Assembly (NCBI GenBank): GCA_016188115.1
Contig: JACPIK010000002.1
Location: 1,064,077 to 1,128,076, forward strand
Reading direction: 5' to 3'
From: Candidatus Woesearchaeota archaeon
GTDB taxonomy: Archaea > Nanobdellota > Nanobdellia > Woesearchaeales > GW2011-AR9
Length of the DNA stretch: 64,000 bases
Shown: piece after piece, positions 7,813 to 60,647 of the stretch
Layout: the number at the start of each line of letters is the position of its first letter
Position numbering within the stretch: position 1 is the first letter of the stretch
Notes under the pieces: generated by a model
The model's input: only the letters and a program-made list of their open reading frames with translations
What the model was told of the DNA's origin: nothing
Databases searched by the model: none
Made by a program: the position numbers and the translations under genes

Positions 7813-7829
7813 ACATTCTAAATTATGGA

Positions 7830-28086: not shown

Positions 28087-29166
28087 TTAAGTACGATCTT
28101 TCATAAAGAAAAAACCCGCAACTGTAACCAAAACAATTAGGATCATTGCATAATCTGAAAACTCTGGTGTAATCGGCGGACCGTTCATAGAAGTTACATT
28201 GATAGTAAAGTTGCTGCTGCAGACTGTTGTTCCATCAAATGTATTGTTGCTCGGTGTTGCGCAAAAAGACCACGTATCACCAATGTTGGTTTGTTCTGCA
28301 GTTATTTGGTTGCTGTTGTTGTAGAGGGCATAAATCTGATTTGAGGAGAGGGATTTTTTGAAAAAATAAAATTCATCAAGAACCCCATCAAAAGTATTAG
28401 CACTGCCATGGTATCCACCAATGGTGAGGTTAACATTGTTATTTATTGCTCCAGTTGTTGTCGTTGTTGCTGAAGAATTAAATCGTCCGTTCACCCATAA
28501 AGTAAGGTTAGATCTAGCCCGTTCCCAATTAACAACTACGTGATACCATATCCCTGTGCCAAATGAACTTGTAAGACTATAACTTCCTCCTGACGCATCG
28601 TCTCCCGAAATCCAGACTTGTACGTTTCCTGAGTTTGGTCGCACGAAATAGTCTCCCCCTACTCCAAATTTTCCTATGGCATAACCGTTGCTAAAACTTT
28701 CTGGTTTCATCCAGAAGGCAACGACGATATCTTCGTTTGCTTGGATGTCATAAAGTGAGCTATGATTTATGAGGATTTTATCTGTTTCACTAAATTCAAA
28801 ATCAAATGCGCCACGACTATCATTACCACCTGTAGGAAGATAATCTGGTGATCCAAGTCCTGAGAAATTGTATGATCCATTATGCCCATAAGCATAATCT
28901 CGAATTTTATTTTCTATTCCTGTGGTATTACCATCAAACGGCATGTAGAGAACAGGAAATGATGTGCCATTAAGCAACCAATTAAAAATAACTTTACCGT
29001 TACCAATATTCTGCGCATTTACTGTATTTGTAGTTAAGTTTTCATCTCCCACGTTATTTCCATTTGTAGTATTCACATATACAGAATCAATGGATGGGTC
29101 AGCTATCACTGTGATAGAAAGAAAAGCTAAGGCTAATAGAATTAGTATAACATCTCTTGTCCTCAT
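28087..29166 (-). CDS. Secreted N-glycosylation-sequon-rich LamG/ConA-like surface protein with PEF-CTERM-type anchor
   Basis: Signal 'ILILLALAFLSITVIA'; 'FDGNTTG...WMKPES...WYHVVVNWERARSNLTLWVNG...DGVLDEFYFFKKSLSSNQIYALY' jelly-roll motifs; C-terminus 'TPEFSDYAMILIVLVTVAGFFFMKDRT'. Confidence 0.7.
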   Translation of the reverse strand: MRTRDVILILLALAFLSITVIADPSIDSVYVNTTNGNNVGDENLTTNTVNAQNIGNGKVIFNWLLNGTSFPVLYMPFDGNTTGIENKIRDYAYGHNGSYNFSGLGSPDYLPTGGNDSRGAFDFEFSETDKILINHSSLYDIQANEDIVVAFWMKPESFSNGYAIGKFGVGGDYFVRPNSGNVQVWISGDDASGGSYSLTSSFGTGIWYHVVVNWERARSNLTLWVNGRFNSSATTTTTGAINNNVNLTIGGYHGSANTFDGVLDEFYFFKKSLSSNQIYALYNNSNQITAEQTNIGDTWSFCATPSNNTFDGTTVCSSNFTINVTSMNGPPITPEFSDYAMILIVLVTVAGFFFMKDRT

Positions 29167-37322: not shown

Positions 37323-38312
37323 CTACTTCACTGCTTCCAACTTCTTCAATTCTTCCTGCGGGTCAGCTTTCTCAACTAACTGCACATTAAACTCTAAGCG
37401 GTCAAACATGTCATTCTTTGTGACACGACCAATAAACTTATACTGCTCACCGAGTAAATCAGTCTTCGATTCTTCAAACAAACTAAGATTGGTCTTGACA
37501 GCATTAAAATCAAGATCAGGCTTATTCAATAAGCGATCCGTTTGATTTTTCCACAGAACGGTACGAATGTTACCACTGCCATCATCAAGAATCAAATTTA
37601 GCACATATGATAATGTAGGTTCAACTTTCCCATGCTCAGCGCACGTCATCGCGCCTTCTTGCTCCGTTACTTTCTTATTGCAACTTCCACACACAGAAAA
37701 AAAGCGAGGATCAAAGATTTGCACAATGGTTCCCATAATCTCTACATTACTCTCTCCTGCAGAAAGATTTGAAATAGGTTTACGTGCGACTTCTGTCGTT
37801 TTGCGAACACTCTCTATCTGCACGCCTTCTGGGTTAATATTGATTGTTCCTTTATCACCAAGATGTAATTCTCGTCCGCCTTGGTTTTCACGCACATAAC
37901 AATTTTTGACTTCAAGAATATCGTCTTCTTTGAGTTCAGCGATTTTATCTACTTGATCGTTCCAAAACACCGTACGAATTGTACCCGTTTCATCACCTAA
38001 TAATATAGAACAAACTTTTCCTTTACTTTCACCCTTAACAAACTCGCGAATTTCAAACTTACGCACAACTTTGCCTACTGCACCAACATTGCGCATGCCT
38101 GCATAAATCTCTTTGATTTTGAGTTTGGCTTTTTCAGCAGGAGTAGTCTCTAGACCAAGCTCATTTGCCAGAATATGCGCCGCACCTTCTTCACTAATCA
38201 ATCCAGAAAGTTCATTGATCTTTTGTTTGATACGCGTATCAAAATCACGTGGAGTGATCTGACCACTTTTAAGTATTCGTTCTTTGAGTTCTTCAAACGG
38301 GATCTTATACAT
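37323..38312 (-). CDS. Replication protein A / ssDNA-binding protein (OB folds plus C4 zinc ribbon)
   Basis: Two OB-like segments; 'CGSCNKKV...MTCAEHG' zinc ribbon; N-terminal RPA-like helix. Confidence 0.7.
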   Translation of the reverse strand: MYKIPFEELKERILKSGQITPRDFDTRIKQKINELSGLISEEGAAHILANELGLETTPAEKAKLKIKEIYAGMRNVGAVGKVVRKFEIREFVKGESKGKVCSILLGDETGTIRTVFWNDQVDKIAELKEDDILEVKNCYVRENQGGRELHLGDKGTININPEGVQIESVRKTTEVARKPISNLSAGESNVEIMGTIVQIFDPRFFSVCGSCNKKVTEQEGAMTCAEHGKVEPTLSYVLNLILDDGSGNIRTVLWKNQTDRLLNKPDLDFNAVKTNLSLFEESKTDLLGEQYKFIGRVTKNDMFDRLEFNVQLVEKADPQEELKKLEAVK

Positions 38313-38367
38313 GATTTTTGGGGGTATAAAGAGGTTTATAAGGTTTTAGCTATTAGAAGAGTACAAA

Positions 38368-39585
38368 TTATTCTGTAATCCCCACAAACCCATTAATCAA
38401 TGATTCATCTTTTTCTTTGGTTCGAGTTGCTGCAAAGTAATAGGTATCTGGTTGAACAGGTGCAATCAAATACCGTAATTCATTGTTACAAATATGGGGT
38501 TCATGAAGTTGTGGCGCGTCACAACTCTCGATAAAAGGACCATTCACAAATTCTTCCTTGCCCAAAATTTGTCCAGTCTGCTCCAAAACAATAATTTGCG
38601 AAGCACTACCACTATATCCAACTAAACTATCCACATTAGTGTAATAAATGGTAAATGATAGCGCATCCTGATCGTAAGGAAAATGCACTGTATATCCTTG
38701 AGCAGTTTGCACTACTTTAGAAAGTGTAACTGGCAGTGCGTTTGTTGGTGTGAAATCTAACACAAAGGGATATCCTTGATCACTATTAAAGAAAACATAA
38801 CAAAATAAAACATCGCGACCCTGTGAAGTAAATTCAGGCACGTTACAATTCCCATACTGCCATCGTTGGGCACGGTTGGCATCAAGACACTTTTTAAGAT
38901 CTTCTTGGTTACGACAAGCAGAAAGTAACTGTGCTGTCTGTGCAAAAACAGCGTCGAGTTCTGCAAGTTGAGTAGGAAGAGTCACTCTTGAAACTAATTG
39001 AGTGGTATACTCCTTACGTGCAGCAGTTGTATCAAAAGCAGCCTTGGGTGTAATTGTATCCCAAAATGGAGCAGAACGAGGATCAATCTTCGTTGCGGAA
39101 GGTCGAGATTGAATTCGCGCAGGCGCAAGATATTCTACACGAGGTGCAGTGAGATAATGTTCCATGCTCGCAACCATAACGCCATTTTTCTGTTCTAACG
39201 TGATCTCGCGATCTACTTGTTGCGCAAGTTGTTGTTGCATCGCTTCTACAAACTCATCATATATTCTAGGAAAGCACATTTTCTCTTTCATATTCCAACG
39301 AGCAAAAGAGGCATACGTTCCACACCCGGTGTCATGAGAGGGCAAAGTAGAATATATTTTTTCCTGAGTAAGAAGACTATTTTCCAACACTTTTTTTTCA
39401 AACACATATTGGTCTTTCGCAGCTCGATACGCATATTCTTCAAGATACTTATACTGCCATTCACCTTTCACATGGGGTATCTCATCCATTCCTTTGTAAT
39501 TAAGAACGACAAATAGACCTATCGATGCAAAAATAACAAATACGATCAAAAACGCGACAGTTCCCTTCTTATGCAGTGAGTTCAT
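38368..39585 (-). CDS. Pilin-like (class III signal/anchor) surface protein, large
   Basis: 'HKKG|TVAFLIVFVIFASIGLFVVL' N-terminus, then a 370-aa extracytoplasmic domain with 8 Cys; last gene of the minus-strand cluster. Confidence 0.55.
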   Translation of the reverse strand: MNSLHKKGTVAFLIVFVIFASIGLFVVLNYKGMDEIPHVKGEWQYKYLEEYAYRAAKDQYVFEKKVLENSLLTQEKIYSTLPSHDTGCGTYASFARWNMKEKMCFPRIYDEFVEAMQQQLAQQVDREITLEQKNGVMVASMEHYLTAPRVEYLAPARIQSRPSATKIDPRSAPFWDTITPKAAFDTTAARKEYTTQLVSRVTLPTQLAELDAVFAQTAQLLSACRNQEDLKKCLDANRAQRWQYGNCNVPEFTSQGRDVLFCYVFFNSDQGYPFVLDFTPTNALPVTLSKVVQTAQGYTVHFPYDQDALSFTIYYTNVDSLVGYSGSASQIIVLEQTGQILGKEEFVNGPFIESCDAPQLHEPHICNNELRYLIAPVQPDTYYFAATRTKEKDESLINGFVGITE

Positions 39586-39893
39586 GATACTCCTCGTTCC
39601 TGATTTTGCTTTGGTAACTCGTCTTCTGCTTCAGCACCAGTTACTGTAGTCAGAACTTCTTTTTGTATTTCGAGTTTCTCTTGATTTCGCACTAATTCAT
39701 TATGATATACTTCAAAATCTGTTGTATGTGATATCGCTACATAATCCGCATTCTTTGTAGATCCTGCCAGTGACGAATAGAGGAAAAAATACGCTAAGAG
39801 TGAAACTGTAATAATAAACAGGAAATCGAACAGATCATCGACAATTCCCTTCTTACTTCTCGAATTTTTAGGTCTTGAATGAAGGTTTTGCAT
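39582..39893 (-). CDS. Pilin-like small protein
   Basis: 'RSKKG|IVDDLFDFLFIITVSLLAYFFL'; 4-nt overlap with the downstream gene. Confidence 0.5.
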   Translation of the reverse strand: MQNLHSRPKNSRSKKGIVDDLFDFLFIITVSLLAYFFLYSSLAGSTKNADYVAISHTTDFEVYHNELVRNQEKLEIQKEVLTTVTGAEAEDELPKQNQERGVS

Positions 39894-40443
39894 TCGGTGT
39901 ACCTCGTTCTATATCTTTTGGACTCTGCCTGCTCTGTACGCGTGCAGTATCTACCGCTTCCCATGCTCGCGCTGTCTTTCGCGGCAGTGTTTCTTGCACA
40001 TATATCATCAACTCATCTTTACTAAATTTGGATCCATCCCAGACTAACACATCTTTGCGCAAACTAAAGTGATCAACATTATAATAGTTGTTTGTCGCAA
40101 TTTGCGCAGCTAATGTATTTTTAAGTTGAAGTCTAAAATTAATCTCTCGATGACCTAACTCTTCAGGAGTTTTATAACAATCATCAAGCCGTTCTTGAGT
40201 AAATTTTGCCAAATCAATGCTCCCTATGATTACGTTTCCAGTTAGTTCATCTTGAAATGCAAAACAATCTGGATTATTTGCGAAACGCAATGAAATAAAA
40301 TCGGAACGAACTTCTGCGGGAACATGTGTCAATTTATCTTTATAACCTGAAATAAGAAAAACAAATGAGATCAGCAGTAAACTAATCGTAAATCCCATCA
40401 CCAACCAATACATACTCTTGCTCGCAACATCAAATACACTCAT
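39868..40443 (-). CDS. N-terminally anchored pilin-like protein
   Basis: 'SKSMYWLVMGFTISLLLISFVFLISG' anchor; 4-nt overlap with the upstream gene. Confidence 0.45.
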   Translation of the reverse strand: MSVFDVASKSMYWLVMGFTISLLLISFVFLISGYKDKLTHVPAEVRSDFISLRFANNPDCFAFQDELTGNVIIGSIDLAKFTQERLDDCYKTPEELGHREINFRLQLKNTLAAQIATNNYYNVDHFSLRKDVLVWDGSKFSKDELMIYVQETLPRKTARAWEAVDTARVQSRQSPKDIERGTPNAKPSFKT

Positions 40444-40958
40444 GGTCTCGCCTCAGTTGAGGGTGGTAACGGTGACGTTGGCAAGGATGATGCAGGGCAC
40501 TCTTGCAATGTGATTACTCTCTCTTTTTTATGGATACACACATGCTGTTTTGCTTCAATGAGTCCTTGGTTGGTCTGTCCCACATATCCCACAGGAAGAT
40601 AAAAATGCGCAGTTGTTTGGTCGTATACTCCATCTGTAGTTTGACGCAGCATAATCGTATCGGATGTTAAAATGAGAGTGTATTGGGTTAAATTTGCCGG
40701 ATATTCTACTAACACCTCTCCGGGTGTTGCGACAGCTGCATTTACCAGCATTGCTATATCCTGTGTGATACGTGTTTGCGTAACTGTTTGCGACTCTGCG
40801 AGTTGTGTTGCTATAGCAATGGTAATACCTGCCACAGCAATCACAAAAAGAACTTCAAATATCATTAATGCCGGTTTCACGCTGGCGCGTTTTGATCTTG
40901 GTAAAACAGTGAAGAATGGAATTTGTAATATCCTCAAAATCATGTTTTTAGAGATCAT
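40440..40958 (-). CDS. Pilin-like protein with Glu+5 type-IV-pilin-style N-terminus
   Basis: 'SKRASVKPA|LMIFEVLFVIAVAGITIAIA': Glu at +5 after the putative cleavage site, as in type IV pilins/pseudopilins. Confidence 0.5.
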   Translation of the reverse strand: MISKNMILRILQIPFFTVLPRSKRASVKPALMIFEVLFVIAVAGITIAIATQLAESQTVTQTRITQDIAMLVNAAVATPGEVLVEYPANLTQYTLILTSDTIMLRQTTDGVYDQTTAHFYLPVGYVGQTNQGLIEAKQHVCIHKKERVITLQECPASSLPTSPLPPSTEARP

Positions 40959-40962
40959 CTTC

Positions 40963-41574
40963 CTATTTTACCTGCAAATGAATTTTATGCGAATCTTTTA
41001 CAATTTCAAGAAGCAGACGTCGTTGGTCATGTTCTTCTCGATAATAATGAAATGGCACGATATCTATACCCTCCATAAATTCACAAGACAGTTTAGCACA
41101 ACTATACGTTTGTTGCGTTTTTACTATTCCATTTTCCTGTTCTTGATGTGAAATTTCAAATTTTCGTTCTTGACATAAACAGATACAATCCTTCTCGTTG
41201 CATTGGGAGGGATACTCGTATGCTTCTACAAAATCATAGGGTTCGCTTATTTCCACTCGAGAGGTTCCCCCTGGTCCTTCAACAATCTCGTTATCTCTTT
41301 TTTGTTCTGAATTAATCACCGTTAGTTGGTTTGCTTTAAATGTCACAATCGATGTCTCTTGATCCATAATCAAAATGATCGTTTTAACATCATCTCGCAT
41401 GTTAGGTTGCGCGAGTTGACGAATCGTATTTACCACTTCCCCGAAATTATGTTCTGCTTGATCACTAAGACGAAATACTTTAGAAACACCATAAATTGCT
41501 GTTCCAAAAATAAGTATTGCAAGCACTATAGTTAATAAAAAGTCCATTACAAATGCGTTTTTATGTAATCTCAT
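40963..41574 (-). CDS. Pilin-like protein
   Basis: 'RLHKNA|FVMDFLLTIVLAILIFGTAIYG' N-terminus; Cys-containing C-domain. Confidence 0.45.
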   Translation of the reverse strand: MRLHKNAFVMDFLLTIVLAILIFGTAIYGVSKVFRLSDQAEHNFGEVVNTIRQLAQPNMRDDVKTIILIMDQETSIVTFKANQLTVINSEQKRDNEIVEGPGGTSRVEISEPYDFVEAYEYPSQCNEKDCICLCQERKFEISHQEQENGIVKTQQTYSCAKLSCEFMEGIDIVPFHYYREEHDQRRLLLEIVKDSHKIHLQVK

Positions 41575-41620
41575 CTTTTTTCCTACTCAACAATTTTCCA
41601 TTTATTCTATCACTACTCAT

Positions 41621-41974
41621 TTATTCCACACAGCATTCTGGCTTTGCAGTTTTTCCATCTGGAGCAAACTTTGTTGCAGCAGTTTCTTCTGGACAGCCTT
41701 CAACTTTACCGTTTTCATCACCCGCAATACATACACATCGATCAAAAAGATCCACGACTCTATCTTTATCACAATCGTTACTACCCTCAATGTTTTCATT
41801 AATAACGCCAAACCCTTTATCGCCGCCGCTTTTAAACCAGATAATCAACAACACAAGCACAACCATTGCAATAGTAGCACCAATAATAATCCACCACATT
41901 TCTGATGAACCATTGCGCGTCTTTTTACATTTCTCTTGCTTAAAATAGTTTGAAATAGTTCGCATCAGTATCAC
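41621..41974 (-). CDS. Small membrane-anchored Cys-rich protein ('MWWIIIGA' family, paralog of 44194..44568)
   Basis: 'KKTRNGSSEMWWIIIGATIAMVVLVLLIIWF', then ~70 aa with 7 Cys including 'PECC'. Confidence 0.5.
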   Translation of the reverse strand: MILMRTISNYFKQEKCKKTRNGSSEMWWIIIGATIAMVVLVLLIIWFKSGGDKGFGVINENIEGSNDCDKDRVVDLFDRCVCIAGDENGKVEGCPEETAATKFAPDGKTAKPECCVE

Positions 41975-41993
41975 TCCTTGTGTTTATTCTTTT

Positions 41994-42881
41994 TTATTTT
42001 CCTTCATAATCGGATATCTCTTCACAATTATTTTTCAAAAACGGACCAATTGTTTTTGTTTCTAAATCAACTAGTATAATTGTATCTAGTTCAGTTTCTC
42101 TAAATGCCTTCTCGATAAGGTTCGATCCTCCCTCTAGAGCAACGATTGCCCCTCCAACAACCAAACCTACTCCGCCTGTCGCAAGACCATACACCAAGAA
42201 AGTTGTCCCTCCTACGGCTGCGGCGCCAGAAAGAAAGTTTCCATCTTCTTTCTTTGATTTAAACATAACTGCATACGCATGATCTTCAAGAATTCCTGCA
42301 GGAGTATTTGTTCCTGCTGCAACATTTGTTTCTTCACCAAAAAATCCCATCACCCGACCATTTCCGCCTCCTCGTTGGAAATAATCTAAATATGTCATTT
42401 CTTTATTTTTAGAATAAGGAGTTTCACGTAAGAATTGTTCAAATTCAGAAGGTGAAATTGCGTTTCCTTCTTCCAGATCTTTAATATCATCAATAATCAG
42501 GGAATAACACGTAAAACATCCATTCTCTGACCCAAAGAGAGGAAAATTAGCAAAAACATCATTGTTATATCTTCCTTCACCCATCATATCCCAACAACGA
42601 GCCATATTTTGAGCAATCTGGAGTTGCACATCATGTTTATCTCCTTTTATTTTCTTATCAATGGTTTTACATAAAATGGGTGCGCCTTTAACATCCGAAC
42701 CACCCACTTCTAAAGCCGCAGACATACGCAGAGCAATACTGCTTTTACATAACGTCTCCGCTTGAAGATCATCATTTTTTGCCTGAGCTTTCATCCAGAC
42801 CGTGACAATGACTAAAAAAGCAGCGATGGCTATAATTACGTAAATTAGAAATTGAAATTCACCGCGTTTGCAACGTCCCAT
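41994..42881 (-). CDS. Pilin-like large extracytoplasmic protein
   Basis: 'CKRG|EFQFLIYVIIAIAAFLVIVTV' N-terminus; Gly-rich C-terminal beta segment 'GGTTFLVYGLATGGVGLVVGG'. Confidence 0.5.
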   Translation of the reverse strand: MGRCKRGEFQFLIYVIIAIAAFLVIVTVWMKAQAKNDDLQAETLCKSSIALRMSAALEVGGSDVKGAPILCKTIDKKIKGDKHDVQLQIAQNMARCWDMMGEGRYNNDVFANFPLFGSENGCFTCYSLIIDDIKDLEEGNAISPSEFEQFLRETPYSKNKEMTYLDYFQRGGGNGRVMGFFGEETNVAAGTNTPAGILEDHAYAVMFKSKKEDGNFLSGAAAVGGTTFLVYGLATGGVGLVVGGAIVALEGGSNLIEKAFRETELDTIILVDLETKTIGPFLKNNCEEISDYEGK

Positions 42882-42958
42882 TCTCTCCCTCTTTTTATAG
42901 GTAGAAAGAGAGTGGGCTTTTTGAATTATTCGTTTTTAATGTTCTTGTTTTTCTCAGA

Positions 42959-43888
42959 TTAAGATGAAGAACAGGTAAGAAGATATCCTGTATCCAATGG
43001 TCTCATTCCTTCTTGTGTGAATTGTCGAATTAAATTTCCCTCTTCTGCAAGATCAGCCCCTAGACAATCATCATCAAGACCATCCGGATCATCTCCTGAA
43101 CAAGTGACGTCTCCTACTGTCGTGGGAAAGAAACAAATATGTTTTTTATCTGGAGTATAAAGCAATCCGCCATCTAACAAATTATTTCCTTCATCGTTAA
43201 TCTCTACCAATCCTAATGCAGAGTTCACTGTTGCTCGTATGGCATTTCCGGTAGCATCAAGACCGGAAGAACGAGTGATCGTAAGTGTTTCAACTGGAAA
43301 ATAATGCATTGCGTAATCACGTAACATACTTTCTTTTTTAATAGCAAAGGGCACATCGGGAAATCGGACATATGCTTCATAAAAATTCCCTGCAACATTT
43401 ACCTCTCTTCCATAGGCATCGTTACGTGTTCCGGCAATCACACAAGGTTTTACTCCTTCAATAAACTCATAGGATACTTCTTGAATCCCCCCTACTCCCC
43501 CAAGGACTTTGATACTCATACCTTCTTTTCCTTCTTTATTTTTACCAGAAGCGAGTACTAGCGATGTCCCCTCTTCACCAAGGTCAGGAAATCCCGATTC
43601 ACCTATTCTTTCGTTATATCGAGCAAAACAATACGATTCTTTTGCATTATGCATCAAAGTTATAGTTTTTTTAAGTTGCATAATTACTTTCTCATGTGAA
43701 GAAGGAATGGCAGGTTTTGTTCCTGGAGTTTCACTAACACCAATATCCACAAAATTCTTTGCATTATGTGTGCTATCCTTTGCTTTTGTAAAGCTACCGT
43801 TAGGACCATACGCCCACAAAAGAAGTAAAACCATAATAATTATCAGAACGGCAACACCCACCACCTTTTCAAAAGAATAACTGCTCAT
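42959..43888 (-). CDS. N-terminally anchored extracytoplasmic protein
   Basis: Probable start 'MSSYSFEKVVGVAVLIIIMVLLLLWAYG'; the ORF-track start at 43912 is GTG. Confidence 0.45.
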   Translation of the reverse strand: MSSYSFEKVVGVAVLIIIMVLLLLWAYGPNGSFTKAKDSTHNAKNFVDIGVSETPGTKPAIPSSHEKVIMQLKKTITLMHNAKESYCFARYNERIGESGFPDLGEEGTSLVLASGKNKEGKEGMSIKVLGGVGGIQEVSYEFIEGVKPCVIAGTRNDAYGREVNVAGNFYEAYVRFPDVPFAIKKESMLRDYAMHYFPVETLTITRSSGLDATGNAIRATVNSALGLVEINDEGNNLLDGGLLYTPDKKHICFFPTTVGDVTCSGDDPDGLDDDCLGADLAEEGNLIRQFTQEGMRPLDTGYLLTCSSS

Positions 43889-43889
43889 T

Positions 43890-44042
43890 CTATAACAAAT
43901 CCCCCAGTCCACCCAATAAATCAGTTAAGTCGCCGCCTAACACTGCAAACCACACAATAACAAAGATAAGAAACGCTAAACCTAGAATCATGAGTATTAA
44001 ATGCCATGCTTCCATTCCTTTTTTGTTCACCTTACGATTCAT
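43890..44042 (-). CDS. Tiny pilin-like membrane protein (50 aa), not in the ORF track
   Basis: My translation: MNRKVNKKGMEAWHLILMILGLAFLIFVIVWFAVLGGDLTDLLGGLGDLL. Stop lies 1 nt before the next gene's ATG; ATGA overlap with the upstream small ORF. Confidence 0.4.
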   Translation of the reverse strand: MNRKVNKKGMEAWHLILMILGLAFLIFVIVWFAVLGGDLTDLLGGLGDLL

Positions 44043-44185
44043 GATAATAATTTCCCTCGCAATTTAAACGCATAAAATAGTAACGCCATCCCTAACAATA
44101 AGACCAAAATTATGATCATCAGAGTATTTGGTGTTAACCAATCGCTGCCTTTCTTGGAACGAATAAAAGAAGTGAGAATACCCAT
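44039..44185 (-). CDS. Tiny pilin-like membrane protein (48 aa), not in the ORF track
   Basis: My translation: MGILTSFIRSKKGSDWLTPNTLMIIILVLLLGMALLFYAFKLRGKLLS. 'SKKG' followed by a TM segment. Confidence 0.4.
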   Translation of the reverse strand: MGILTSFIRSKKGSDWLTPNTLMIIILVLLLGMALLFYAFKLRGKLLS

Positions 44186-44193
44186 GCTCTCAC

Positions 44194-44568
44194 CTAAGTA
44201 CAATACATTTTTTTTGCACTAAATTGCACACATTGGCTATCTGCGGATTTTTGCGTGCAAACAGGATCAGTTCCTACTGTTTTACATTCAACCGGCACGC
44301 CTAAACAACACACTTTTGCGTCTCCACCAGCAGCGTTCCCACAATCAAACGCGCCATTCTCTAAAGTACTTCGGGGGCATTCTCCACTCGCAGCGCAAAT
44401 TCCTCCTTTTCCTTCACAATCACTTAACCCTGCTTCTAAGAGATTGGTTTTTCCTGTAAAAAGAACAATAAGAATAACTAAAACAAGAAGAGCAATCACT
44501 GCGCCAATAATAATCCACCACATGGTGGCATCAGCGCGACGTGATTGTAAAATTGATGTCATGACCAA
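44194..44568 (-). CDS. Small membrane-anchored Cys-rich protein ('MWWIIIGA' family)
   Basis: 'RRADATMWWIIIGAVIALLVLVILIVLF', then ~85 aa with 11 Cys ('KVCCLG'). Confidence 0.5.
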   Translation of the reverse strand: MVMTSILQSRRADATMWWIIIGAVIALLVLVILIVLFTGKTNLLEAGLSDCEGKGGICAASGECPRSTLENGAFDCGNAAGGDAKVCCLGVPVECKTVGTDPVCTQKSADSQCVQFSAKKMYCT

Positions 44569-44571
44569 CTC

Positions 44572-44916
44572 CTAATAACGGCAACCGTTTGCTTCACAGT
44601 TTGTTTTGTCATCATTCCAGCTTTTACACCGGCTGATTTCATCACGGAAACGAGATTGGGCAACTTCTTTATCTTCAGGCGTTGCTGCTTGAGAATATTC
44701 AGTTGTATACGTTGATTCACGCGCAACAGTTGGTTTACAAGAACCATAGCTAATCTTCATTTCTGCAAGATCAACATTTCCCTGCGCGCCGACACCTTGG
44801 TTAAAAATTGCGATTCTTCCTGTAAAAATAGCACCTAAAATAACTAAAATGAGGAGTGCTAATACTGCAACAATAATTACATTAATGGACATACTTTGCC
44901 CTTTGTTTGAAAGCAT
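44572..44916 (-). CDS. Archaeal type IV pilin-like protein (class III signal peptide, KGQ site)
   Basis: Likely start at internal Met: 'MLSNKGQ|SMSINVIIVAVLALLILVILGAIF'. The ORF-track 5' extension to 45084 would overlap the divergent gene. Confidence 0.55.
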   Translation of the reverse strand: MLSNKGQSMSINVIIVAVLALLILVILGAIFTGRIAIFNQGVGAQGNVDLAEMKISYGSCKPTVARESTYTTEYSQAATPEDKEVAQSRFRDEISRCKSWNDDKTNCEANGCRY

Positions 44917-45046
44917 ACTCTTCCACCTCTTTTTTTCTACTAACCTGGTAAACGGAAAATATGTATATAAAACTTGCTGTATGTGCGAGTGCTCATTCCA
45001 TTGCTCTGTCCCGCAATAGTTAAATAGTAAAAAGTGTCCTCTCGTT
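44917..45046. promoter_or_regulatory. Divergent promoter region between the pilin-like operon (minus) and the PEF-CTERM array (plus)
   Basis: ~130-bp AT-rich spacer separating the first genes of two oppositely oriented surface-protein clusters. Confidence 0.4.
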
Positions 45047-46153
45047 GTGATGTTTACACAAAGAGGTCGATTTTGGTTACTCATAGTGCTCTTCCTATTT
45101 CTTCTTCCATCTCTTGTTTTGAGCGGTGTTCATTTCGTTGACCCTACTCTGGCAAATAACACCCTTACCTCAAATCAAACTGTGTACATCAATGTTTCTT
45201 TTACAGAACTAAACCTTCAAAGTATAATTTACAATTGGAATAGCACTAATTTCACACTTTTCAACAGCTCAACTGTCTTGTTGTTGAACTTCAACAACCT
45301 TTCAAATTTAGGCGAAAACGGCAGTATTGTCAAAGATGCGAGTCTTTCTGGAAATAATGGCACTACTATTAATGGAAGTACTATCATCACTAATGGAAAA
45401 TATGGTTCTGCGATTACCTTTGATGGTCTAAGCGGATACGCCCGCATTCCTCACAGCACTTCTCTTCAATTTGGAACGGGTGGGTTTTCTATAAATTTTT
45501 GGATGAAAGTCAGCTCAACACCTGTTGTAAGTCAGACCGGACAAATTTTTGGCAAAAGAGTAGCTGGCGGTGGCAACTACGAGCTCCAAATCTCCAATGA
45601 AGTTCTTGTGGCCTACCTTGAAACTCCTACAACTCAGATTACTTCTACTTATAACATTAGCCAACATCTCGGAGAATGGATTTTTGTGACACTCAATCGT
45701 AATAATACTGCAGCAGGAATCTACGTTAATGGTTTGTTAAATACATCGGCAACATCAACCCAAAATATCAACAGTGTCGCACCATTAGAACTAGGTCGTG
45801 ATGGGGATGGAAAAAACGAGTATTTCAACGGGTCAATCGATAATTTTATGATTTTCAATCGTGGTCTTACTCACGCTGAAATCTTGGAGTTATACTTCTC
45901 AAATTTAGAACGACATAGCAATGAAAGTTGGACTTTTTTCATTAACCAAAGCCAAAATACCACTGGCGTTCTTGCCAACGGAACATACACCTATCAATTT
46001 TTTGCAACAAATAGTTCTGGCACTACTTCAAATACAACACAATGGCAAGTACGTATTGGACAACTGCTCGATGTTCCTGAATGGAGTACTCTAGGTATGG
46101 TAGTAATACTCATTATCACTATCTCTAGCTTCTTTCTACGTAAAGAAACATAA
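45047..46153 (+). CDS. Secreted LamG/ConA-like surface protein with variant PEF-type C-terminal anchor (paralog 1 of 5)
   Basis: Signal peptide; conserved N-module 'FVDPTLANNTLTSN..YINVSFTE'; 'FDGLSGYARIP...WMKV'; 'NGSIDNFMIFNRGLTHAEILELY'; C-terminus 'VPEWSTLGMVVILIITISSFFLRKET'. Confidence 0.7.
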   Translation: MMFTQRGRFWLLIVLFLFLLPSLVLSGVHFVDPTLANNTLTSNQTVYINVSFTELNLQSIIYNWNSTNFTLFNSSTVLLLNFNNLSNLGENGSIVKDASLSGNNGTTINGSTIITNGKYGSAITFDGLSGYARIPHSTSLQFGTGGFSINFWMKVSSTPVVSQTGQIFGKRVAGGGNYELQISNEVLVAYLETPTTQITSTYNISQHLGEWIFVTLNRNNTAAGIYVNGLLNTSATSTQNINSVAPLELGRDGDGKNEYFNGSIDNFMIFNRGLTHAEILELYFSNLERHSNESWTFFINQSQNTTGVLANGTYTYQFFATNSSGTTSNTTQWQVRIGQLLDVPEWSTLGMVVILIITISSFFLRKET

Positions 46154-46240
46154 AACCAGTCCAAGAAAAATTGTTCGCATGCATTTTCTCACTCGGAGCT
46201 CTTCGCAACTATTAAATACCTCATTTTTCTTATCTATTGT

Positions 46241-47356
46241 ATGGTTGTAGTGAAGAGGTTTATTTCTAATACGTTGTGTTTTATTCTTCTATTTTGTTTT
46301 ACCTCATTAACCTCCGCAACAGTAACTCCTACATTCATTAATCCTACGCCAGCCAACAACACAGTAACATCAAACACTTCTATTCTCATCAACATTTCTT
46401 TTACAGAACCATATCTTACCAATGTGACTTATATTTGGAATGGAACCAATTATACTCTCTATGATAACTCTACTCTTCTTTTCTTAATGGGTTTCAACAA
46501 TTTCTCTGGTATTGGTGATAACACCACAACTGCTGTCGATGTTTCTGCTCGCGCCCGCAATGGCACAATTACGGGAGCAATCTTCAATACGACTGGTCGT
46601 TACGGTGGCGCGTATAGTTTTATGGCAGGAAATCAATATATCCAAACTCAACGTAATTTCATGAACAACCTCTCCACCTTTTCTATGGCTGGTTGGGTTT
46701 ATGCAGAAGCAACAGGGAACAGAATTGCTTTTTTTGGTCAAAATGATGCTATCGAGTTTGGTTTCATTGATGCTAACACCATCACGTTTTATACTAGTGA
46801 TGCCTCAAGTGCTTCTTGGACAATTAACAGTACTCTCTTTCCTCTTAATGCGTGGAATTTCGTCGCCGTTACTGCAAATAATAATACTAATCCCTCTCTT
46901 ACAATTTATATTAACGGGATTGCCCAAGCAACCGGAGGCACTGTTACAGATACATTCGGCAATTCTGTTTATAATTTTAGCATCGGTGGATGTGTTTGGG
47001 ATCCAACAGGCAATAATTTCACTGGAATGATTGATGAAGTGATGGTTTTTAACCGCACACTCACTCCTGCAGAAGTGTATCTCACATATAGTTCTAATCT
47101 TTACAAATATGCTAATGATCAATGGTATCTCTCTATTAATCAAAGTCTTAATGCAACGCAAACTCTTGTCAATGGCACTTATACCTACCAAGTTTTTACG
47201 CAAAATATCTCCGGAACTTCATTAAACACAGAACAACGTACAGTTATCATCGGACAGCTTCCAGGTGTACCTGAATTCGGCGAGTGGGCAATACTACTTA
47301 TTTTAATCTCTACTGTTCTGGGGTACTTTCAAATGAAAAAAGCTAATTTGTCTTAG
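46241..47356 (+). CDS. Secreted LamG/ConA-like surface protein, PEF-CTERM (paralog 2)
   Basis: 'FINPTPANNTVTSNTSILINISFTE'; 'DEVMVFNRTLTPAEVYLTY'; C-terminus 'VPEFGEWAILLILISTVLGYFQMKKANLS'. Confidence 0.75.
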   Translation: MVVVKRFISNTLCFILLFCFTSLTSATVTPTFINPTPANNTVTSNTSILINISFTEPYLTNVTYIWNGTNYTLYDNSTLLFLMGFNNFSGIGDNTTTAVDVSARARNGTITGAIFNTTGRYGGAYSFMAGNQYIQTQRNFMNNLSTFSMAGWVYAEATGNRIAFFGQNDAIEFGFIDANTITFYTSDASSASWTINSTLFPLNAWNFVAVTANNNTNPSLTIYINGIAQATGGTVTDTFGNSVYNFSIGGCVWDPTGNNFTGMIDEVMVFNRTLTPAEVYLTYSSNLYKYANDQWYLSINQSLNATQTLVNGTYTYQVFTQNISGTSLNTEQRTVIIGQLPGVPEFGEWAILLILISTVLGYFQMKKANLS

Positions 47357-47413
47357 GCACTTAAGACCACTCTTCCCGTAAAGGTTAAATATCCTACGAA
47401 CAGCGTTTTATTC

Positions 47414-48577
47414 ATGAATGGACAAAAGAGGAGTAGATTGTATACGTTAAGTAGTATCATCCTTTTTTGTCTCGCGTTCTCATTTACTGTTTATGCTGAC
47501 CAAAGTCCTACCTTTATTGATCCTACTTTTGCTAACAACACGCTAACCTCCAACACATCAATTGTAGTTAATGTTTCCATCACAGAGCCTCTTTTAGGCA
47601 ACATAACCTATAATTGGAACGGCAGTAATTACACATTGTACAGCGAAGAACTCGTAGTTATGTTTAATTTTGATAACCTTTCAGGTGTGGGAGAGAATTA
47701 CAGTGGAAACCGCAGTAACATTTTCGATGCATCACGCAATCGCAACAATGGAACTTGGATCACTAATCTCACCAATGAGACTATCAGAAGTAATTGGACT
47801 GCGCAGGGCAGGCATGGTGGTGCCATTGGTTTTGATGGTATTGATGATGTTGTGTACATCTCTAGTATTCCTGGCTTAAGCAATGCTACTAGCATAACAT
47901 TTTCCTACTGGGTAAAATTCCCTGACAATGCGACAAGTTATGACTTGAGTGGTTTTGTCAAAAGTGGCAGTGGTCCTGCAATCCGTTTAGGTCGAAGTAG
48001 TACCGGTGGTATTTTCATCAACCCTGGAACCCATACCGATATTTCTATTTCTCATTCCATCAACAACAAAAACCAATGGTATTTCCTTGCGTTAACTTCA
48101 GCTGTTGGAAAAAACTGGACCGTCTACGTTGATGGTAAAAATATTTCCAGCGGAACCAATGGTCTTCCTAGTGTTGGATTTGCGGGCGATACCCCATTTG
48201 GCATCGGTGCAACACTTGAACCAATTTCAACGGTATGGGAAACCAGGGGGTTCATCGATGAGCCTCGTATTTACAACCGCAGTTTCACACCAGAGGAGAT
48301 CTACACCCTTTACATCTCAAATTTCCAGAAAGTAACAGAGTCGCAATGGTACTTTTCCGCTAACCAAAGCCTCAATGCAACGGATGTTCTTGTGAACGGA
48401 ACGTATACCTATCAATTTTTTACTAAAAATACGACCGGCACGCAAAGCAGTACCGAGCAACGAACCATTCACATTGGCCAACTACCAGCAGTTCCAGAAT
48501 TTGGTGAGTGGGCAGTTTTACTGATTCTAATCTCAACTGTTGTAGGATATTTTCGGATGAAGCAAAGGACAGAATAA
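47414..48577 (+). CDS. Secreted LamG/ConA-like surface protein, PEF-CTERM (paralog 3)
   Basis: 'FIDPTFANNTLTSNTSIVVNVSITE'; 'FDGIDDVVYIS...WVKFP'; C-terminus 'VPEFGEWAVLLILISTVVGYFRMKQRTE'. Confidence 0.75.
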   Translation: MNGQKRSRLYTLSSIILFCLAFSFTVYADQSPTFIDPTFANNTLTSNTSIVVNVSITEPLLGNITYNWNGSNYTLYSEELVVMFNFDNLSGVGENYSGNRSNIFDASRNRNNGTWITNLTNETIRSNWTAQGRHGGAIGFDGIDDVVYISSIPGLSNATSITFSYWVKFPDNATSYDLSGFVKSGSGPAIRLGRSSTGGIFINPGTHTDISISHSINNKNQWYFLALTSAVGKNWTVYVDGKNISSGTNGLPSVGFAGDTPFGIGATLEPISTVWETRGFIDEPRIYNRSFTPEEIYTLYISNFQKVTESQWYFSANQSLNATDVLVNGTYTYQFFTKNTTGTQSSTEQRTIHIGQLPAVPEFGEWAVLLILISTVVGYFRMKQRTE

Positions 48578-48578
48578 G

Positions 48579-49661
48579 ATGGTATTGGCTTCTCAACAAT
48601 CATTAAATCGGTTCTTACTTTTTTCATTATTTGTAATTTTATTATCAAGTCCAAGCATCGCATCAGTCTCTTTTGTCGATCCAACTATGTCAGACAATAC
48701 TCTTAGTTCAAATACAAGCATCATCATTAATGCAACTATTACAGATGCAGCATTGCGTGAAGTGATGTATGTTTGGAACGGTTCCAACTTCACGTTCTAC
48801 AATAATAGTATCTCATTGATGTTTAATTTTGATACTTACACTCAACTCAACGACACCAGTAAATTTCATAGAAATGCTTCCTATATGGGTGATGCTGCCT
48901 ACACAGCTTCAGGAAAATATAATGGAGCCGTTGCATTTGATGGAAATGGAGATTATATCCAACTCAACACAACAACGGGGATTCCTGTAGGTAACGACCT
49001 GTATACAATTTCAGCTTGGATTAATCCCACCATCTGTAATGGTGGGTATGGTATTGTGGGATGGGGAAGTTATGGGTCCTCAAACCAAGCGAACGCATTT
49101 CGTCTTGCAACAGGTTGTTTTATCCTCAACTACTGGTGGGCTAATGACATCACTTCTACCGGCACAGTTGCAATCAATCAATGGAATCATGTCGTAGCGA
49201 CATTTAATGGTTCAACTCGTTCGCTTTATATTAATGGGCGCTTAGACAAATCCGACACCCCCAGCGGCCACAACGTAGTTGTTGTAGATCCCGTTACAAT
49301 TGGAAAGACTTACTCCAATGAATATTTTAATGGAACCATTGATGAAGTTCGCATCTGGAACTGCTCCTTCAATTCTACAGAGATCTATGAACAATATGTT
49401 TCTAATTTGCGCCAGTATGATACGGACAAATGGGAACTGCTTGTTAACCAAAGTAAAAACGCTACTGCCGTTTTAGACAACGCAACCTACACCTATCAAA
49501 TCTTCACATACAACACGACCGGCAGCCAAAGTAGTACAGAACAACGTAGTTACACCTTAGGACAAATTCCCATCACCCCAGAGTTTGGTGAATGGGCAAT
49601 GTTACTCATCCTCATTACGGTCATCAGCGGTTTTTATGGTCTTAAACGGCATTCAGAGTAA
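48579..49661 (+). CDS. Secreted LamG/ConA-like surface protein, PEF-CTERM (paralog 4)
   Basis: 'FVDPTMSDNTLSSNTSIIINATITD'; 'FDGNGDYIQL...WINP'; 'DEVRIWNCSFNSTEIYEQY'; C-terminus 'TPEFGEWAMLLILITVISGFYGLKRHSE'. Confidence 0.75.
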   Translation: MVLASQQSLNRFLLFSLFVILLSSPSIASVSFVDPTMSDNTLSSNTSIIINATITDAALREVMYVWNGSNFTFYNNSISLMFNFDTYTQLNDTSKFHRNASYMGDAAYTASGKYNGAVAFDGNGDYIQLNTTTGIPVGNDLYTISAWINPTICNGGYGIVGWGSYGSSNQANAFRLATGCFILNYWWANDITSTGTVAINQWNHVVATFNGSTRSLYINGRLDKSDTPSGHNVVVVDPVTIGKTYSNEYFNGTIDEVRIWNCSFNSTEIYEQYVSNLRQYDTDKWELLVNQSKNATAVLDNATYTYQIFTYNTTGSQSSTEQRSYTLGQIPITPEFGEWAMLLILITVISGFYGLKRHSE

Positions 49662-49692
49662 GGATTAAATACTCTCATCTGCTCTTCTCATC

Positions 49693-50799
49693 ATGGACCA
49701 AAAGAGGATAATGTTCACTATTTTAGTCTTTGCGCTGTATTCTTATTCTGGTCTTGCTACTGTTACTTTTATTGACCCAACACCTTCCGATGCAACCCTC
49801 TCTTCCAACACCAGCGTGATCATTAATGTATCCATCACAGAATCAAATCTAAGTTCCATTACTCATGTGTGGAATGGTACTAATTTCACTTTTTATAACA
49901 GCTCATTGGTTCTCCTTCTTAATTTTGAACCGTATAGGGGAATGAATGACTCTTCCTCATCAGCTCTGAGCCCGAGCATTTTTGGCGATTCATCCATCAA
50001 TTCCAGCGGGGGCAAGTATGGTGCATCGCTTACTCTTGATGGAACAGGCGACTATCTAACTATCCCTCGAGTAATCACAGACGATTTCACACTTGCAGCT
50101 TGGATAAATAAAAGAACATCATTAACCAATAATGGTGCTTGCAGTAATGATCAATGGTATTGTGGGTTTGGCATTCTTGACGCAGAAGTAGCGGGTGTAA
50201 GCAATGATTTTGGATTAGGAGTGAAAGATAACAAAATTATTTTTGGAATCGGAAATGCGGATACCAGTATCCTCTCCACGACAACACTCAATTCAGATCA
50301 GTGGTATTTTGTCGCCGCAACTCGTGAAAAATCTACTGGTGCTATGCGAATTTATGTGAATGGTATTAATGAGACTCAAGCAACAGGAAATACTAATTCT
50401 TTAACTTCAAACGCCAACATCTATATCGGTGAAGATGGTAGTGGAAACCGAGGGTTCTTTAATGGTCAATTTGATGATGTCCAAATTTACAATCGTACTC
50501 TCTCTAATGCCGAAATCGCCGAGCTCTACCTGCAAAACATCTGGCGACATAATGCGACACAGTGGTATTTCTATGTTAATCAAAGTCAGAATGCCACCAC
50601 AGTATTATCAAATGGTACGTATACTTACCAAATTTTTACTACAAACACGACAGGAAGTGGGAGCAATACAGAACAACGCACCTATACTTTAGGTCAACTC
50701 CCAACTGCTCCTGAATTTGGTGAGTGGGCGATACTGCTTATTTTAATCTCAACAGTTGCAGGCTATTTTCACATGCGCACCAAACAACAAAACGACTAA
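49693..50799 (+). CDS. Secreted LamG/ConA-like surface protein, PEF-CTERM (paralog 5)
   Basis: 'FIDPTPSDATLSSNTSVIINVSITE'; 'LDGTGDYLTIP...WINK'; 'DDVQIYNRTLSNAEIAELY'; C-terminus 'APEFGEWAILLILISTVAGYFHMRTKQQND'. Confidence 0.75.
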   Translation: MDQKRIMFTILVFALYSYSGLATVTFIDPTPSDATLSSNTSVIINVSITESNLSSITHVWNGTNFTFYNSSLVLLLNFEPYRGMNDSSSSALSPSIFGDSSINSSGGKYGASLTLDGTGDYLTIPRVITDDFTLAAWINKRTSLTNNGACSNDQWYCGFGILDAEVAGVSNDFGLGVKDNKIIFGIGNADTSILSTTTLNSDQWYFVAATREKSTGAMRIYVNGINETQATGNTNSLTSNANIYIGEDGSGNRGFFNGQFDDVQIYNRTLSNAEIAELYLQNIWRHNATQWYFYVNQSQNATTVLSNGTYTYQIFTTNTTGSGSNTEQRTYTLGQLPTAPEFGEWAILLILISTVAGYFHMRTKQQND

Positions 50800-54978: not shown

Positions 54979-55719
54979 TTATTCAGCCAATGCTTGTTCA
55001 ATGACTTGTTGGAATGCAGCGAATGGTTGCGCTCCGCTAATCAAACGTCCATTCACAAAAAATGCAGGAGTTCCTTGTACGCCAGCAGCGCTTCCATCTT
55101 GCATATCTTTGGCAACTTCTTGTTTGATAGCAGGATCAGCACGGCATTTTTCCCATGTTGCGCTATTCAAACCAATCTCTTGTGCCCATTGTTTAAGAGT
55201 AGCTTCGCTAAGCAATTCTTGATTGGCAAAGATTTTGTCGTGAAGTGCGTAATATTTTCCTTGTTTTCCAGCACACTCAGCTGCAATTGCTGCAGGTTCA
55301 GCCATAGCATGGAAAGGTAGAGGATAATCTCGGAAGATTAATTTTACTTTTCCAGTATCAATGTATTGACTTTTAAGCTGTGGTAGAGTTTGTTGATAGA
55401 ATCGACCGCAGAATGGGCATTGGTAATCGCTAAATTCCACAATGGTAACTGGGGCATCTTCATCCCCAAGAACAGCATCAGTATCAACTAATTTTTCCAT
55501 ATTAACAACGGGAGCAGGTGCTTCTTCCCCAGGAGCTAAGGGTACATTTGGCACATTAGCAACACCAGCGCTTCCTATTGATCCTACCTTAAACGCGATA
55601 AAGAGCAACAGCACGATTTGAATCACTGCTGCGCCAATTAATAATTTATGCATCGTTGATGTTTTTTCACCATGAACATGTGTTTCTCTATGATGAGTTT
55701 CTTGTTTTATATCTTCCAT
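54979..55719 (-). CDS. DsbA-like thiol:disulfide oxidoreductase, membrane-anchored
   Basis: N-terminal TM 'LLIGAAVIQIVLLLFIAF', 'VEFSDYQCPFCGRFYQQ' CPxC active site, DsbA-fold C-terminus. Confidence 0.75.
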   Translation of the reverse strand: MEDIKQETHHRETHVHGEKTSTMHKLLIGAAVIQIVLLLFIAFKVGSIGSAGVANVPNVPLAPGEEAPAPVVNMEKLVDTDAVLGDEDAPVTIVEFSDYQCPFCGRFYQQTLPQLKSQYIDTGKVKLIFRDYPLPFHAMAEPAAIAAECAGKQGKYYALHDKIFANQELLSEATLKQWAQEIGLNSATWEKCRADPAIKQEVAKDMQDGSAAGVQGTPAFFVNGRLISGAQPFAAFQQVIEQALAE

Positions 55720-60579: not shown

Positions 60580-60647
60580 ATCCCCCCACTGGTCACACTG
60601 GTCAACTCCGCAATTCCTTTAAATATCCCCCAAACAGAAACCAATCC

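Follow-up and report, generated by a model that had tools for sequence, protein, structure and literature searches.

A conserved twelve-gene operon in Woesearchaeales and Pacearchaeales archaea probably encodes the pilin module of a type IV filament system

Woesearchaeota and Pacearchaeota, two groups that rank among the most abundant uncultured DPANN archaea, have no known mechanism for attachment to, or exploitation of, partner cells. Here we analyzed a stretch of 64,000 nucleotides, called the window below, from a 1.47-Mb contig (JACPIK010000002.1; NCBI locus tags HYV86_*) of a Candidatus Woesearchaeota archaeon of the DPANN group. The minus strand of the window carries at positions 38368 to 44916 an operon of 12 open reading frames (ORFs), which we number g1 to g12 by order of transcription. 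We conclude that this operon is probably the pilin module of a type IV filament (TFF superfamily) system that resembles type IV pili (T4P) and is specific for Woesearchaeales and Pacearchaeales, that the assembly machinery is presumably encoded elsewhere in the genome, and that adhesion would be the likeliest function. This is because the class III signal sites are conserved, the gene order is conserved, and homologous genes are linked to assembly machinery in three related loci (L047, L048, and L050).

Results

Class III signal sites are kept in the orthologs

Each of the 12 products has one N-terminal hydrophobic helix. In 10 of them a [K/R/N][G/A] dipeptide is found just before this helix (8 with [KR][GA] and 2 with N[GA]), and with an arrow for the putative cleavage site these read KG↓Q in g1, RA↓D in g2, KG↓S in g3, KG↓M in g4, RG↓E in g6, NG↓S in g7, NA↓F in g8, RA↓S in g9, KG↓I in g11, and KG↓T in g12. 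No such site is present in g5. We mapped profiles for all 12 families on 47 loci and counted [KR][GA] at most 18 residues upstream of the helix. The dipeptide was present in 43/43 orthologs of g1, 62/64 of g2, 31/35 of g3, 41/42 of g4, 42/44 of g6, 37/39 of g7, 38/42 of g8, 37/38 of g9, 17/33 of g10, 29/32 of g11, and 27/32 of g12, and in 2/40 orthologs of g5. As a control, 7 of 66 other genes with an N-terminal hydrophobic segment contained it, and since 6 of these 7 are pilin-like genes in ATPase-linked clusters of relatives, the true background is about 1 in 60. The site is kept in 11 of the 12 ortholog families with the consensus M-N-K-K-[G/A]; its distance to the helix is fixed, and the length and sequence of the leader vary. 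An example is L003, a 5.5-kb metagenomic contig with colinear orthologs of g4 to g12 (27 to 51% identity), where the leaders differ in length and the [KQ][GA] position is the same. Judged by the ortholog counts against the control, the N-terminal pattern is far above chance and seems to behave as a processing site, not as a generic positive-inside signal. The initial annotation took all of these proteins for prepilin-peptidase substrates. This is borne out by the orthologs of 11 families, but it does not extend to all twelve proteins, as g5 has a signal anchor and g10 in the window is leaderless.

The g10 family may show what the processed form looks like. It comprises 301 representatives at 50% clustering, and nearly all start with MNKK[GA]↓Q/E..FDVARK. 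In the window, g10 opens directly with M-SVFDVASK, at the point where the mature N-terminus of the orthologs would begin. The orthologs beyond the 17/33 with a dipeptide are also leaderless; leaderless copies make up about half of the orthologs in related loci, compared to about 10% of the representatives across the whole family. Such copies (P0032, P0033, P0035, P0037, P0097, P0123, and others) have a methionine and one to five mostly acidic residues, followed by FDVARK. They look like a naturally "pre-processed" class III substrate, and their start at the predicted mature end agrees with removal of the leader from the other members.

Gene order is fixed across dozens of species

In a scan of one genome per species, homologs of g6 were found in 42 loci, all from metagenome-assembled genomes (MAGs) of Woesearchaeota, GTDB-Nanoarchaeota, or Pacearchaeota. 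The canonical order is complete, with all 12 families, in 21 loci, and 31 loci keep at least 10 families in order; most of the other loci, with fewer families, end at contig boundaries. The initial annotation had proposed a comparison with related genomes, and both the order of the 12 families in 21 loci and the N-terminal pattern proved to be retained. The gene for RPA lies 3' of g12 in the window and in L004, L005, L006, L007, and L047, and it is near the T4P cluster in L050 and L051. In L005 to L007, it is followed by the Hjc resolvase and RadA genes.

Directly upstream of g1, about 30 of the 42 related loci have a second conserved module (e.g., L006 1-3212, L007 1-7205, and L008 4957-7835), in which a gene for a giant protein of 1,000 to 2,050 amino acids (aa) with CarboxypepD_reg domains is followed by four more pilin-like genes, a to d. 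The families of the latter are a (~170 aa, KKGM↓GVGQVF), b (~380 aa, KKGQ↓IEVTFNWVYI), c (~170 aa, RKAQ↓IQMTETIAVLF), and d (~190 aa, KKGQ↓MEMIGLVV). By analogy with PilY1 and its minor pilins, the giant protein and a to d could be an adhesin plus a set of priming pilins. This module is absent from the 64-kb window.

Homologous genes adjoin assembly machinery in relatives

In L047, from a Woesearchaeota MAG, the locus starts with a 728-aa T2SSE ATPase (PF00437, E=7.5e-15), a 686-aa protein with nine transmembrane (TM) segments, and a 216-aa protein that begins with MKG↓QFNSL. Genes of the g6, g4, g1, g2/7, g8, g9, g10, g11, and g12 types with KKG-type leaders come next, and then RPA, YdjM, and RadA. 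In L048, from Pacearchaeota, the g6 homolog is preceded by the ATPase and the 9-TM protein; L049 has the 9-TM protein, and its flank begins inside the region. On a 535-kb Pacearchaeota contig (L050), the order is an ATPase (best NCBIfam match FlaI, 3.7e-37, with a weak BasE match also), an LPG_synthase_TM protein, a membrane protein of 717 aa, and a series of about 10 small KKG proteins, among them homologs of g6 (E=3e-30) and g1 (EKKG↓QGLSTNAIIL, E=3e-11). The next gene is that of a Peptidase_A24 (PF01478; NCBIfam FlaK 2.5e-10, below the cutoff), with RPA about 1 kb beyond. L051 resembles L050 and also has a Peptidase_A24 gene in or beside its cluster. We assigned the 9-TM proteins as the platform on the basis of gene position, nine TM segments, and a weak T2SSF match (E=0.085) that was obtained for 2 of 5 members in the expected cytoplasmic region.

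The initial annotation had left two options, machinery encoded elsewhere or a noncanonical surface structure without it. The adjoining T2SSE ATPase, 9-TM protein, and A24 peptidase genes in relatives support the first, and the linkage in L047, L048, and L050 makes the second unlikely. We read the ancestral locus as ATPase-platform-pilins-peptidase, from which the pilin module would later have separated in the Woesearchaeales clade of the window.

The T2SSE ATPase family has more than 6,300 homologs in these lineages, and the matches listed are about 760 aa long and about 53% identical. Two homologs of 1,238 aa (P0189 and P0190) have, in the precomputed Pfam annotation, PF14528 and PF14890 inserted in the ATPase; these we take to be homing-endonuclease and intein-splicing families, so that these members presumably carry an intein.

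In L047, the g12 homolog at 14869-16827 (MKKG↓AVIGIISVLGF) is fused to Peptidase_M23 and Amidase_3 (N-acetylmuramoyl-L-alanine amidase). Because these are peptidoglycan hydrolases on a putative archaeal pilus subunit, they suggest that this homolog may make contact with bacterial cell walls. Such a fusion was found in 1 of 42 scanned variants and is not present in g12 of the window. The 216-aa protein of L047 gave a very weak peptidoglycan-hydrolase match (E=0.048).

Database and structure searches

We scanned the proteins against Pfam and NCBIfam at E≤1 for g1 to g10; for g11 and g12, the thresholds were E≤0.01 (Pfam) and E≤0.1 (NCBIfam). No family was matched significantly by any of the 12 proteins, and the curated archaeal pilin families (Class_IIIsignal PF04021, Pilin_N PF07790, DUF361-type, and the NCBIfam archaeal flagellin N-terminal-like domain) gave no match at all at these thresholds. 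Neither the bacterial pilin motif G↓F/M-T-L-I-E with Glu at +5 nor the N-methylation domain was found among them. A PHROG scan of 10 of the 12 proteins gave nothing meaningful; the weak matches of g2 and g7 (E values of 3e-4 and 9e-4) cover the transmembrane helix only. Sequence-profile searches against the PDB returned only unrelated TM helices for the g1 family and nothing for the platform family, and a census of the domains in long orthologs, made to find a functional module shared by them, returned sporadic single-member domains only. The operon proteins are annotated as hypothetical wherever sources name them.

The model of g10 (predicted local distance difference test [pLDDT] score, 86.7) has an N-terminal helix at residues 4 to 56 (~53 residues, kinked), followed by a five-stranded sheet. 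This predicted layout is that of a generic "lollipop" pilin, and we make no claim of fold membership. A Foldseek search of g10 against the PDB found nothing, and neither g6 nor g10 has a predicted fold that matches a solved pilin. The structure prediction proposed in the initial annotation thus gave g10 a pilin-like general layout, and for neither protein a similarity to a pilin of known structure. The globular domains of pilins are notoriously variable.

The individual genes

All genes described in this section are on the minus strand, and their sizes were taken from separate gene calling on L001, the public contig of identical sequence. g1 (44572-44916; 114 aa) starts with MLSNKG↓QSMSINVIIVAVLALLILVILGAIF (MLSNKG↓QSMSINVIIVAV) and has a small domain of about 75 aa with 4 invariant Cys residues. 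The N-terminus of its family, KKG↓QGLSLNVIIVAALALIVLVVL, is nearly invariant in 43/43 orthologs. We regard g1 as the probable major pilin on four grounds: its size is small, it opens the operon, its mature N-terminus (QGLSLNVIIVAALALIVLVVL) hardly varies, and the 4 Cys residues are invariant.

Two other small proteins, g2 (44194-44562; 122 aa; SRRA↓DATMWWIIIGAV) and g7 (41621-41965; 114 aa; KTRNG↓SSEMWWIIIGAT), are pilin-like and Cys-rich, with 10 Cys residues in g2. The consensus of the g2 family is KKA↓SANMWWIIIGAVIALVVL, and its 64 profile matches include a few of the upstream c/d-type pilin-like genes. For g7 the family consensus is KKG↓TSQMWWII; the position -2 is degenerate (N) in this genome, and the window copy is 46% identical to the L003 ortholog. 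That g2 and g7 are paralogs, as initially annotated, is confirmed by BLASTP (E=8e-10), but the likeness is mainly in the N-terminal part. The two tiny ORFs seen earlier are real gene calls: g3 (44039-44185; 48 aa; SKKG↓SDWLTPNTLMIIILVLLLGMALLF), also called on L001 and with orthologs in 35 loci, and g4 (43890-44042; 50 aa; NKKG↓MEAWHLILMILGLAFLIF), whose family consensus is KKG↓MEMWQLVLIILA and which also has an ortholog in L003. Both are mini pilin-like proteins, and g3 consists of a leader, a helix, and a short tail.

The exception in the operon is g5 (42959-43888; 309 aa), which has an N-terminal signal anchor and no class III motif. It is 34% identical to its L003 ortholog and has no Pfam match, and the extracellular domain of its orthologs varies in size (about 257 to 702 aa in full-length calls). 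It is probably a non-pilin, signal-anchored accessory or anchoring component. g6 (41994-42881; 295 aa; CKRG↓EFQFLIYVIIAIAAF) combines a pilin-like N-terminus and a Cys-stabilized globular domain with an additional Gly-rich hydrophobic segment close to the C-terminus, and the consensus of its family (27 homologs) is K-[GAS]↓M-x-A-G-F-L-V. Residues 216 to 251, a conserved Gly/Ala-rich hydrophobic stretch, have a pLDDT of <50 and are very variable in length among homologs; they may be a second membrane segment or a flexible linker.

The remaining five genes are all pilin-like. g8 (40963-41574; 203 aa) starts with MRLHKNA↓FVMDFLLTIVLAILIF, compared to a family consensus of MNKK[GA]↓IMVKFLVTVLLAIIIF. 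g9 (40440-40943; 167 aa; RSKRA↓SVKPALMIFEVLFVIAVAG) has a conserved Glu within the helix, a family consensus of MNKKA↓SSILLMIFEILVV, and a weak GspH N-terminal match that is not significant (E=0.13). The Glu at +5 reported in the initial annotation was an artifact of the chosen cleavage site: according to the alignment, cleavage is likely at KRA↓S, and the conserved Glu is at about +8 to +10. g10 (39868-40443; 191 aa) is the leaderless protein described above (M-SVFDVASKSMYWLV; other members of its large family start with MNKK[GA]↓Q.FDVARKTIYW). g11 (39582-39893; 103 aa; SRSKKG↓IVDDLFDFLFIITVSLL; family consensus NKKG↓MMDDLFDFLFTV) has an acidic DD.F(D) motif where the helix begins. The last gene, g12 (38368-39585; 405 aa; MNSLHKKG↓TVAFLIVFVIFASIGLF), encodes a large protein with an 8-Cys extracellular domain, and its homologs P0002 and P0003 retain KRG↓/KKG↓. 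We consider g12 a candidate for the tip or adhesin subunit.

Operon setting and neighboring genes

The operon takes up about 6.5 kb of a genome of about 1.5 Mb, and its G+C content equals that of the flanks (0.37 to 0.40). From g1 to g12, the gaps are 9, 8, -4, 1, 77, 28, 46, 19, -4, -26, and -4 nucleotides (nt). The packing is tight and confined to one strand, as initially described, but with gaps from -26 to +77 nt the genes do not all abut or overlap by 4 nt. On the minus strand, a TATA-box-like TTTTATATA (44964-44972), read from the sequence 48 to 56 nt 5' of the g1 start codon, is probably the operon promoter, and a Shine-Dalgarno-like GAGGTGG (44923-44929) is located 7 to 13 nt 5' of the g1 ATG. 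A scan of the region for bacterial promoters and terminators, a method that is not applicable to archaea, showed no enrichment.

The flanks consist of housekeeping genes: directly 3' of the operon is RPA, followed by YdjM, RadA, PPDK, and others. RPA (37323-38312) is an RPA-like OB-fold protein that binds single-stranded DNA. Because it has its own TATA box (TTATAAA, 38335-38341, ~26 nt before the RPA ATG), it is probably transcribed separately from the operon. Divergent from g1 and starting 130 bp upstream, five tandem LamG (Laminin_G_3) proteins with PEF-CTERM-like tails are encoded at 45047-50799. The initial annotation joined this array and the operon into a cell-surface island of about 12.4 kb. 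The divergent arrangement holds in the window, but the island is not conserved in relatives. The array was seen next to the operon only in the contigs of this genome (L001); L005 to L007 differ, with unrelated genes upstream of g1 in L005, and LamG proteins were not searched for in the other loci. We rejected the island as a conserved unit, given that other genes are found upstream of g1 in L005 to L007 and in about 30 loci. A sixth LamG protein is encoded at 28087-29166, about 16 kb away.

Other genes in the window are of separate interest. A DsbA-like thioredoxin gene (Thioredoxin_4/DSBA) at 54979-55719 would be compatible with an oxidative folding of the many Cys-rich extracytoplasmic products of the operon. 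At 7770-8483, a gene for a cyclodipeptide synthase (PF16715, E=2.6e-32) adjoins that for a Mur-ligase-family protein (6496-7812), a pair that is unusual in a small DPANN genome. The HerA-like (DUF87) ATPase at 58341-60161 is divergent to a 601-aa protein with weak AAA-type matches (Walker A GANSGGKT) at 60561-62366, and both are unrelated to T2SSE ATPases.

Discussion

The following mechanism would account for the organization of the operon. Eleven of the 12 products would be synthesized as preproteins whose class III leader (MNKK[G/A]) is short and basic. An A24 prepilin peptidase of the PibD/FlaK type would cleave after the G or A, and the hydrophobic N-terminal helix would keep the subunit held in the membrane until a FlaI/TadA-type ATPase and a polytopic platform extract the subunits and polymerize them into a surface filament. 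In such a filament, g1 would be the major subunit, g2 to g4 and g6 to g12 would supply the minor, tip, or base subunits, whose ectodomains would be disulfide bonded and diverse, and g5 would be an accessory protein. The ATPase, platform, and peptidase genes of this genome are presumably located outside the 64-kb window, elsewhere on the 1.47-Mb chromosome. The most likely role of the filament would be adhesion to surfaces or to a partner cell.

Several observations weigh against this interpretation. No T2SSE ATPase, T2SSF platform, or A24 peptidase was found in the window, as the initial annotation had already noted, by Pfam scans of the larger ORFs, the precomputed annotation of 28 to 50 kb, regular expressions for Walker A/T2SSE and GxGD-K motifs, and a count of polytopic proteins, with some small ORFs unscanned; the sole large ATPases are the HerA-like protein, RadA, and the AAA protein. 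The canonical 12-gene loci of relatives likewise have no ATPase, platform, or A24 peptidase within ±10 kb, and none of the best 120 of the more than 6,300 homologs found with the L047/L048 ATPase profile is from this genome. No Pfam or NCBIfam pilin or class III model was matched by any of the 12 proteins. Of the signal prediction that had been proposed initially, only part came out as expected, as g1 satisfies the strict FlaFind regular expression but the other 11 proteins do not. In the g3, g10, and g11 families, 4 to 10 polar or acidic residues separate the putative cleavage site from the hydrophobic core, which is unusual for pilins. Class III signals also serve non-filament proteins, such as Sulfolobus binding proteins, and because of this the formation of a filament is something that we infer.

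This last point leads to a different explanation, in which the class III-type or signal-anchor N-termini serve for membrane insertion only and the products form a non-filament envelope complex, similar to the bindosome or to a scaffold of the S-layer or pseudoperiplasm. PibD substrates in Sulfolobus include sugar-binding proteins that are assembled by the Bas system. The plain signal anchor of g5 would fit such a complex, the second hydrophobic segment of g6 might hold g6 in the membrane, and the modeled ectodomain of g10 resembles Cache/PAS-like ligand-binding sensor domains. The absence of adjacent machinery genes in about 40 loci and of any pilin-family match also agrees with it. However, the Bas system is itself T4P derived and has an ATPase and a platform, so that this explanation differs mainly in the shape of the product. 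Moreover, the layout of g1 is that of a textbook major pilin, in which a short leader and KKG↓Q precede ~25 invariant hydrophobic residues and then a small domain, g3 and g4 are so short (48 and 50 aa) that they lack an ectodomain fit to act as a binding protein, and in L047, L048, and L050 there is linkage to the ATPase, platform, or peptidase. We therefore find an envelope complex unlikely.

With the same type IV filament hardware, the function could instead be DNA uptake or exchange, or penetration of the wall of a bacterial host, as with a competence pilus or a Ups/Ced-like system. The position of RPA next to g12 (window, L004 to L007, and L047) or near the cluster (L050 and L051), the presence of Hjc and RadA in L005 to L007, and the M23 endopeptidase and Amidase_3 fusion on the L047 g12 homolog point in this direction. 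On the other hand, RPA is preceded by a TATA box of its own; RPA, Hjc, and RadA belong to the housekeeping genes, and their conserved neighborhood could be frozen synteny; only 1 of 42 scanned variants carries the hydrolase fusion, which the window lacks; and no DNA-binding or ComEC/Ced-like component was seen. We consider this function quite improbable. Finally, an integrated virus or mobile element, which the many small ORFan membrane proteins without database families and the weak PHROG matches of g2 and g7 could indicate, was rejected and has almost no probability left, as the operon has a fixed chromosomal place beside RPA in dozens of species, lacks integrase, capsid, and replication genes, has the composition of its flanks, and gave PHROG matches that are confined to the transmembrane helix.

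We return to the pilin module and its relation to known systems. The Epd-type pili of Methanococcus maripaludis (EpdA-E, further pilin-like genes, and the EppA peptidase; PMC3875500 and PMC4390842) are similar in having several different pilin-like genes in a cluster, a short basic leader ending in K-G, often with Gln at +1 (as in the KKG↓Q of the g1 and g10 families), and a dependence, presumed for the operon, on an A24 peptidase and a FlaI-like ATPase and platform that may be encoded at a separate locus. In contrast, the operon has no sequence or Pfam/NCBIfam relationship with them (no DUF361/Class_IIIsignal match). It has far more subunit types (11, with 4 more in most relatives), a gene order that is fixed across an order-level clade, Cys-rich ectodomains, and, in several subunits, polar or acidic stretches right behind the cleavage site.

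The operon also resembles the bacterial sets of minor pilins and pseudopilins (FimU-PilVWXE-PilY1 of T4aP, GspG-K of the T2SS, and ComGC-GG of the Com pilus; PMC8727766), which are operons of different pilin-like proteins in a conserved order. Some of the subunits are large and might act as a cap or primer of the filament. The giant putative adhesin beside four extra pilin-like genes in relatives is reminiscent of PilY1 with its minor pilins. The operon differs from these sets in its archaeal-type leader, the lack of a Gly-Phe-Thr-Leu-Ile-Glu motif, of Glu at +5, and of an N-methylation domain match, and in having twelve members rather than four to six. Modular pilins such as PilB of Streptococcus sanguinis (PMC8179133) are comparable to the L047 g12 homolog with its M23 and Amidase_3 domains and to other orthologs with BNR/Sortilin or TSP_3 repeats, whereas g12 of the window has no recognizable module, and the organisms and sequences are unrelated. 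Like the Sulfolobus bindosome (BasABC and BasEF), in which small class III-signal proteins assemble a surface structure other than a classical pilus, the L050 cluster has an ATPase with a weak match to BasE, but the operon has no associated substrate-binding proteins and no sequence similarity to BasABC.

In the portions considered here of the archaeal TFF surveys by Makarova et al. in 2016 (PMC4858521) and with MacSyFinder in 2026 (bioRxiv 10.64898/2026.04.22.720090), the core likewise consists of a T2SSE ATPase, a platform, a class III peptidase, and pilins. These surveys are anchored on the ATPase/platform neighborhood, and those portions, supplementary tables aside, contain no account of a 12-gene pilin operon of Woesearchaeota that is unlinked to an ATPase; DPANN systems are mentioned briefly, and nanoarchaeal ATPases without identifiable pilins are noted. 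Our literature search did not find a description of the operon either. Compared to the archaeal type IV pili (Epd, Aap, and Pil), it differs in that its proteins belong to no curated pilin family, that the subunit set is large and rigidly ordered, and that it is not linked to machinery in most genomes.

The order of the operon is identical across dozens of species, and yet its proteins are in no curated family. Surveys that are anchored on the ATPase would probably miss pilin modules of this kind, and the profiles of the g1 to g12 and a to d families can be used to annotate thousands of DPANN MAGs. The many distinct subunits, the leaderless g10 variants, and the occasional enzyme-bearing pilins bear on the diversification of type IV filaments. 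In what appears to be the source groundwater study of this genome, pili-like appendages were imaged on ultrasmall cells and assigned to no taxon (PMC7906910); the products of the operon are concrete candidates for these structures. The hydrolase-bearing g12 homolog of L047, the giant adhesin-like protein with four extra pilins, and the position of RPA, Hjc, and RadA hint at a more speculative role, to which we give a small chance, namely, that the filament is a host-interaction organelle which breaches the wall of a bacterial partner and/or imports DNA, with a dozen or more pilin-like subunits building a specialized tip complex. If true, this reading would for the first time define a molecular apparatus behind the episymbiotic lifestyle of Woesearchaeota and Pacearchaeota.

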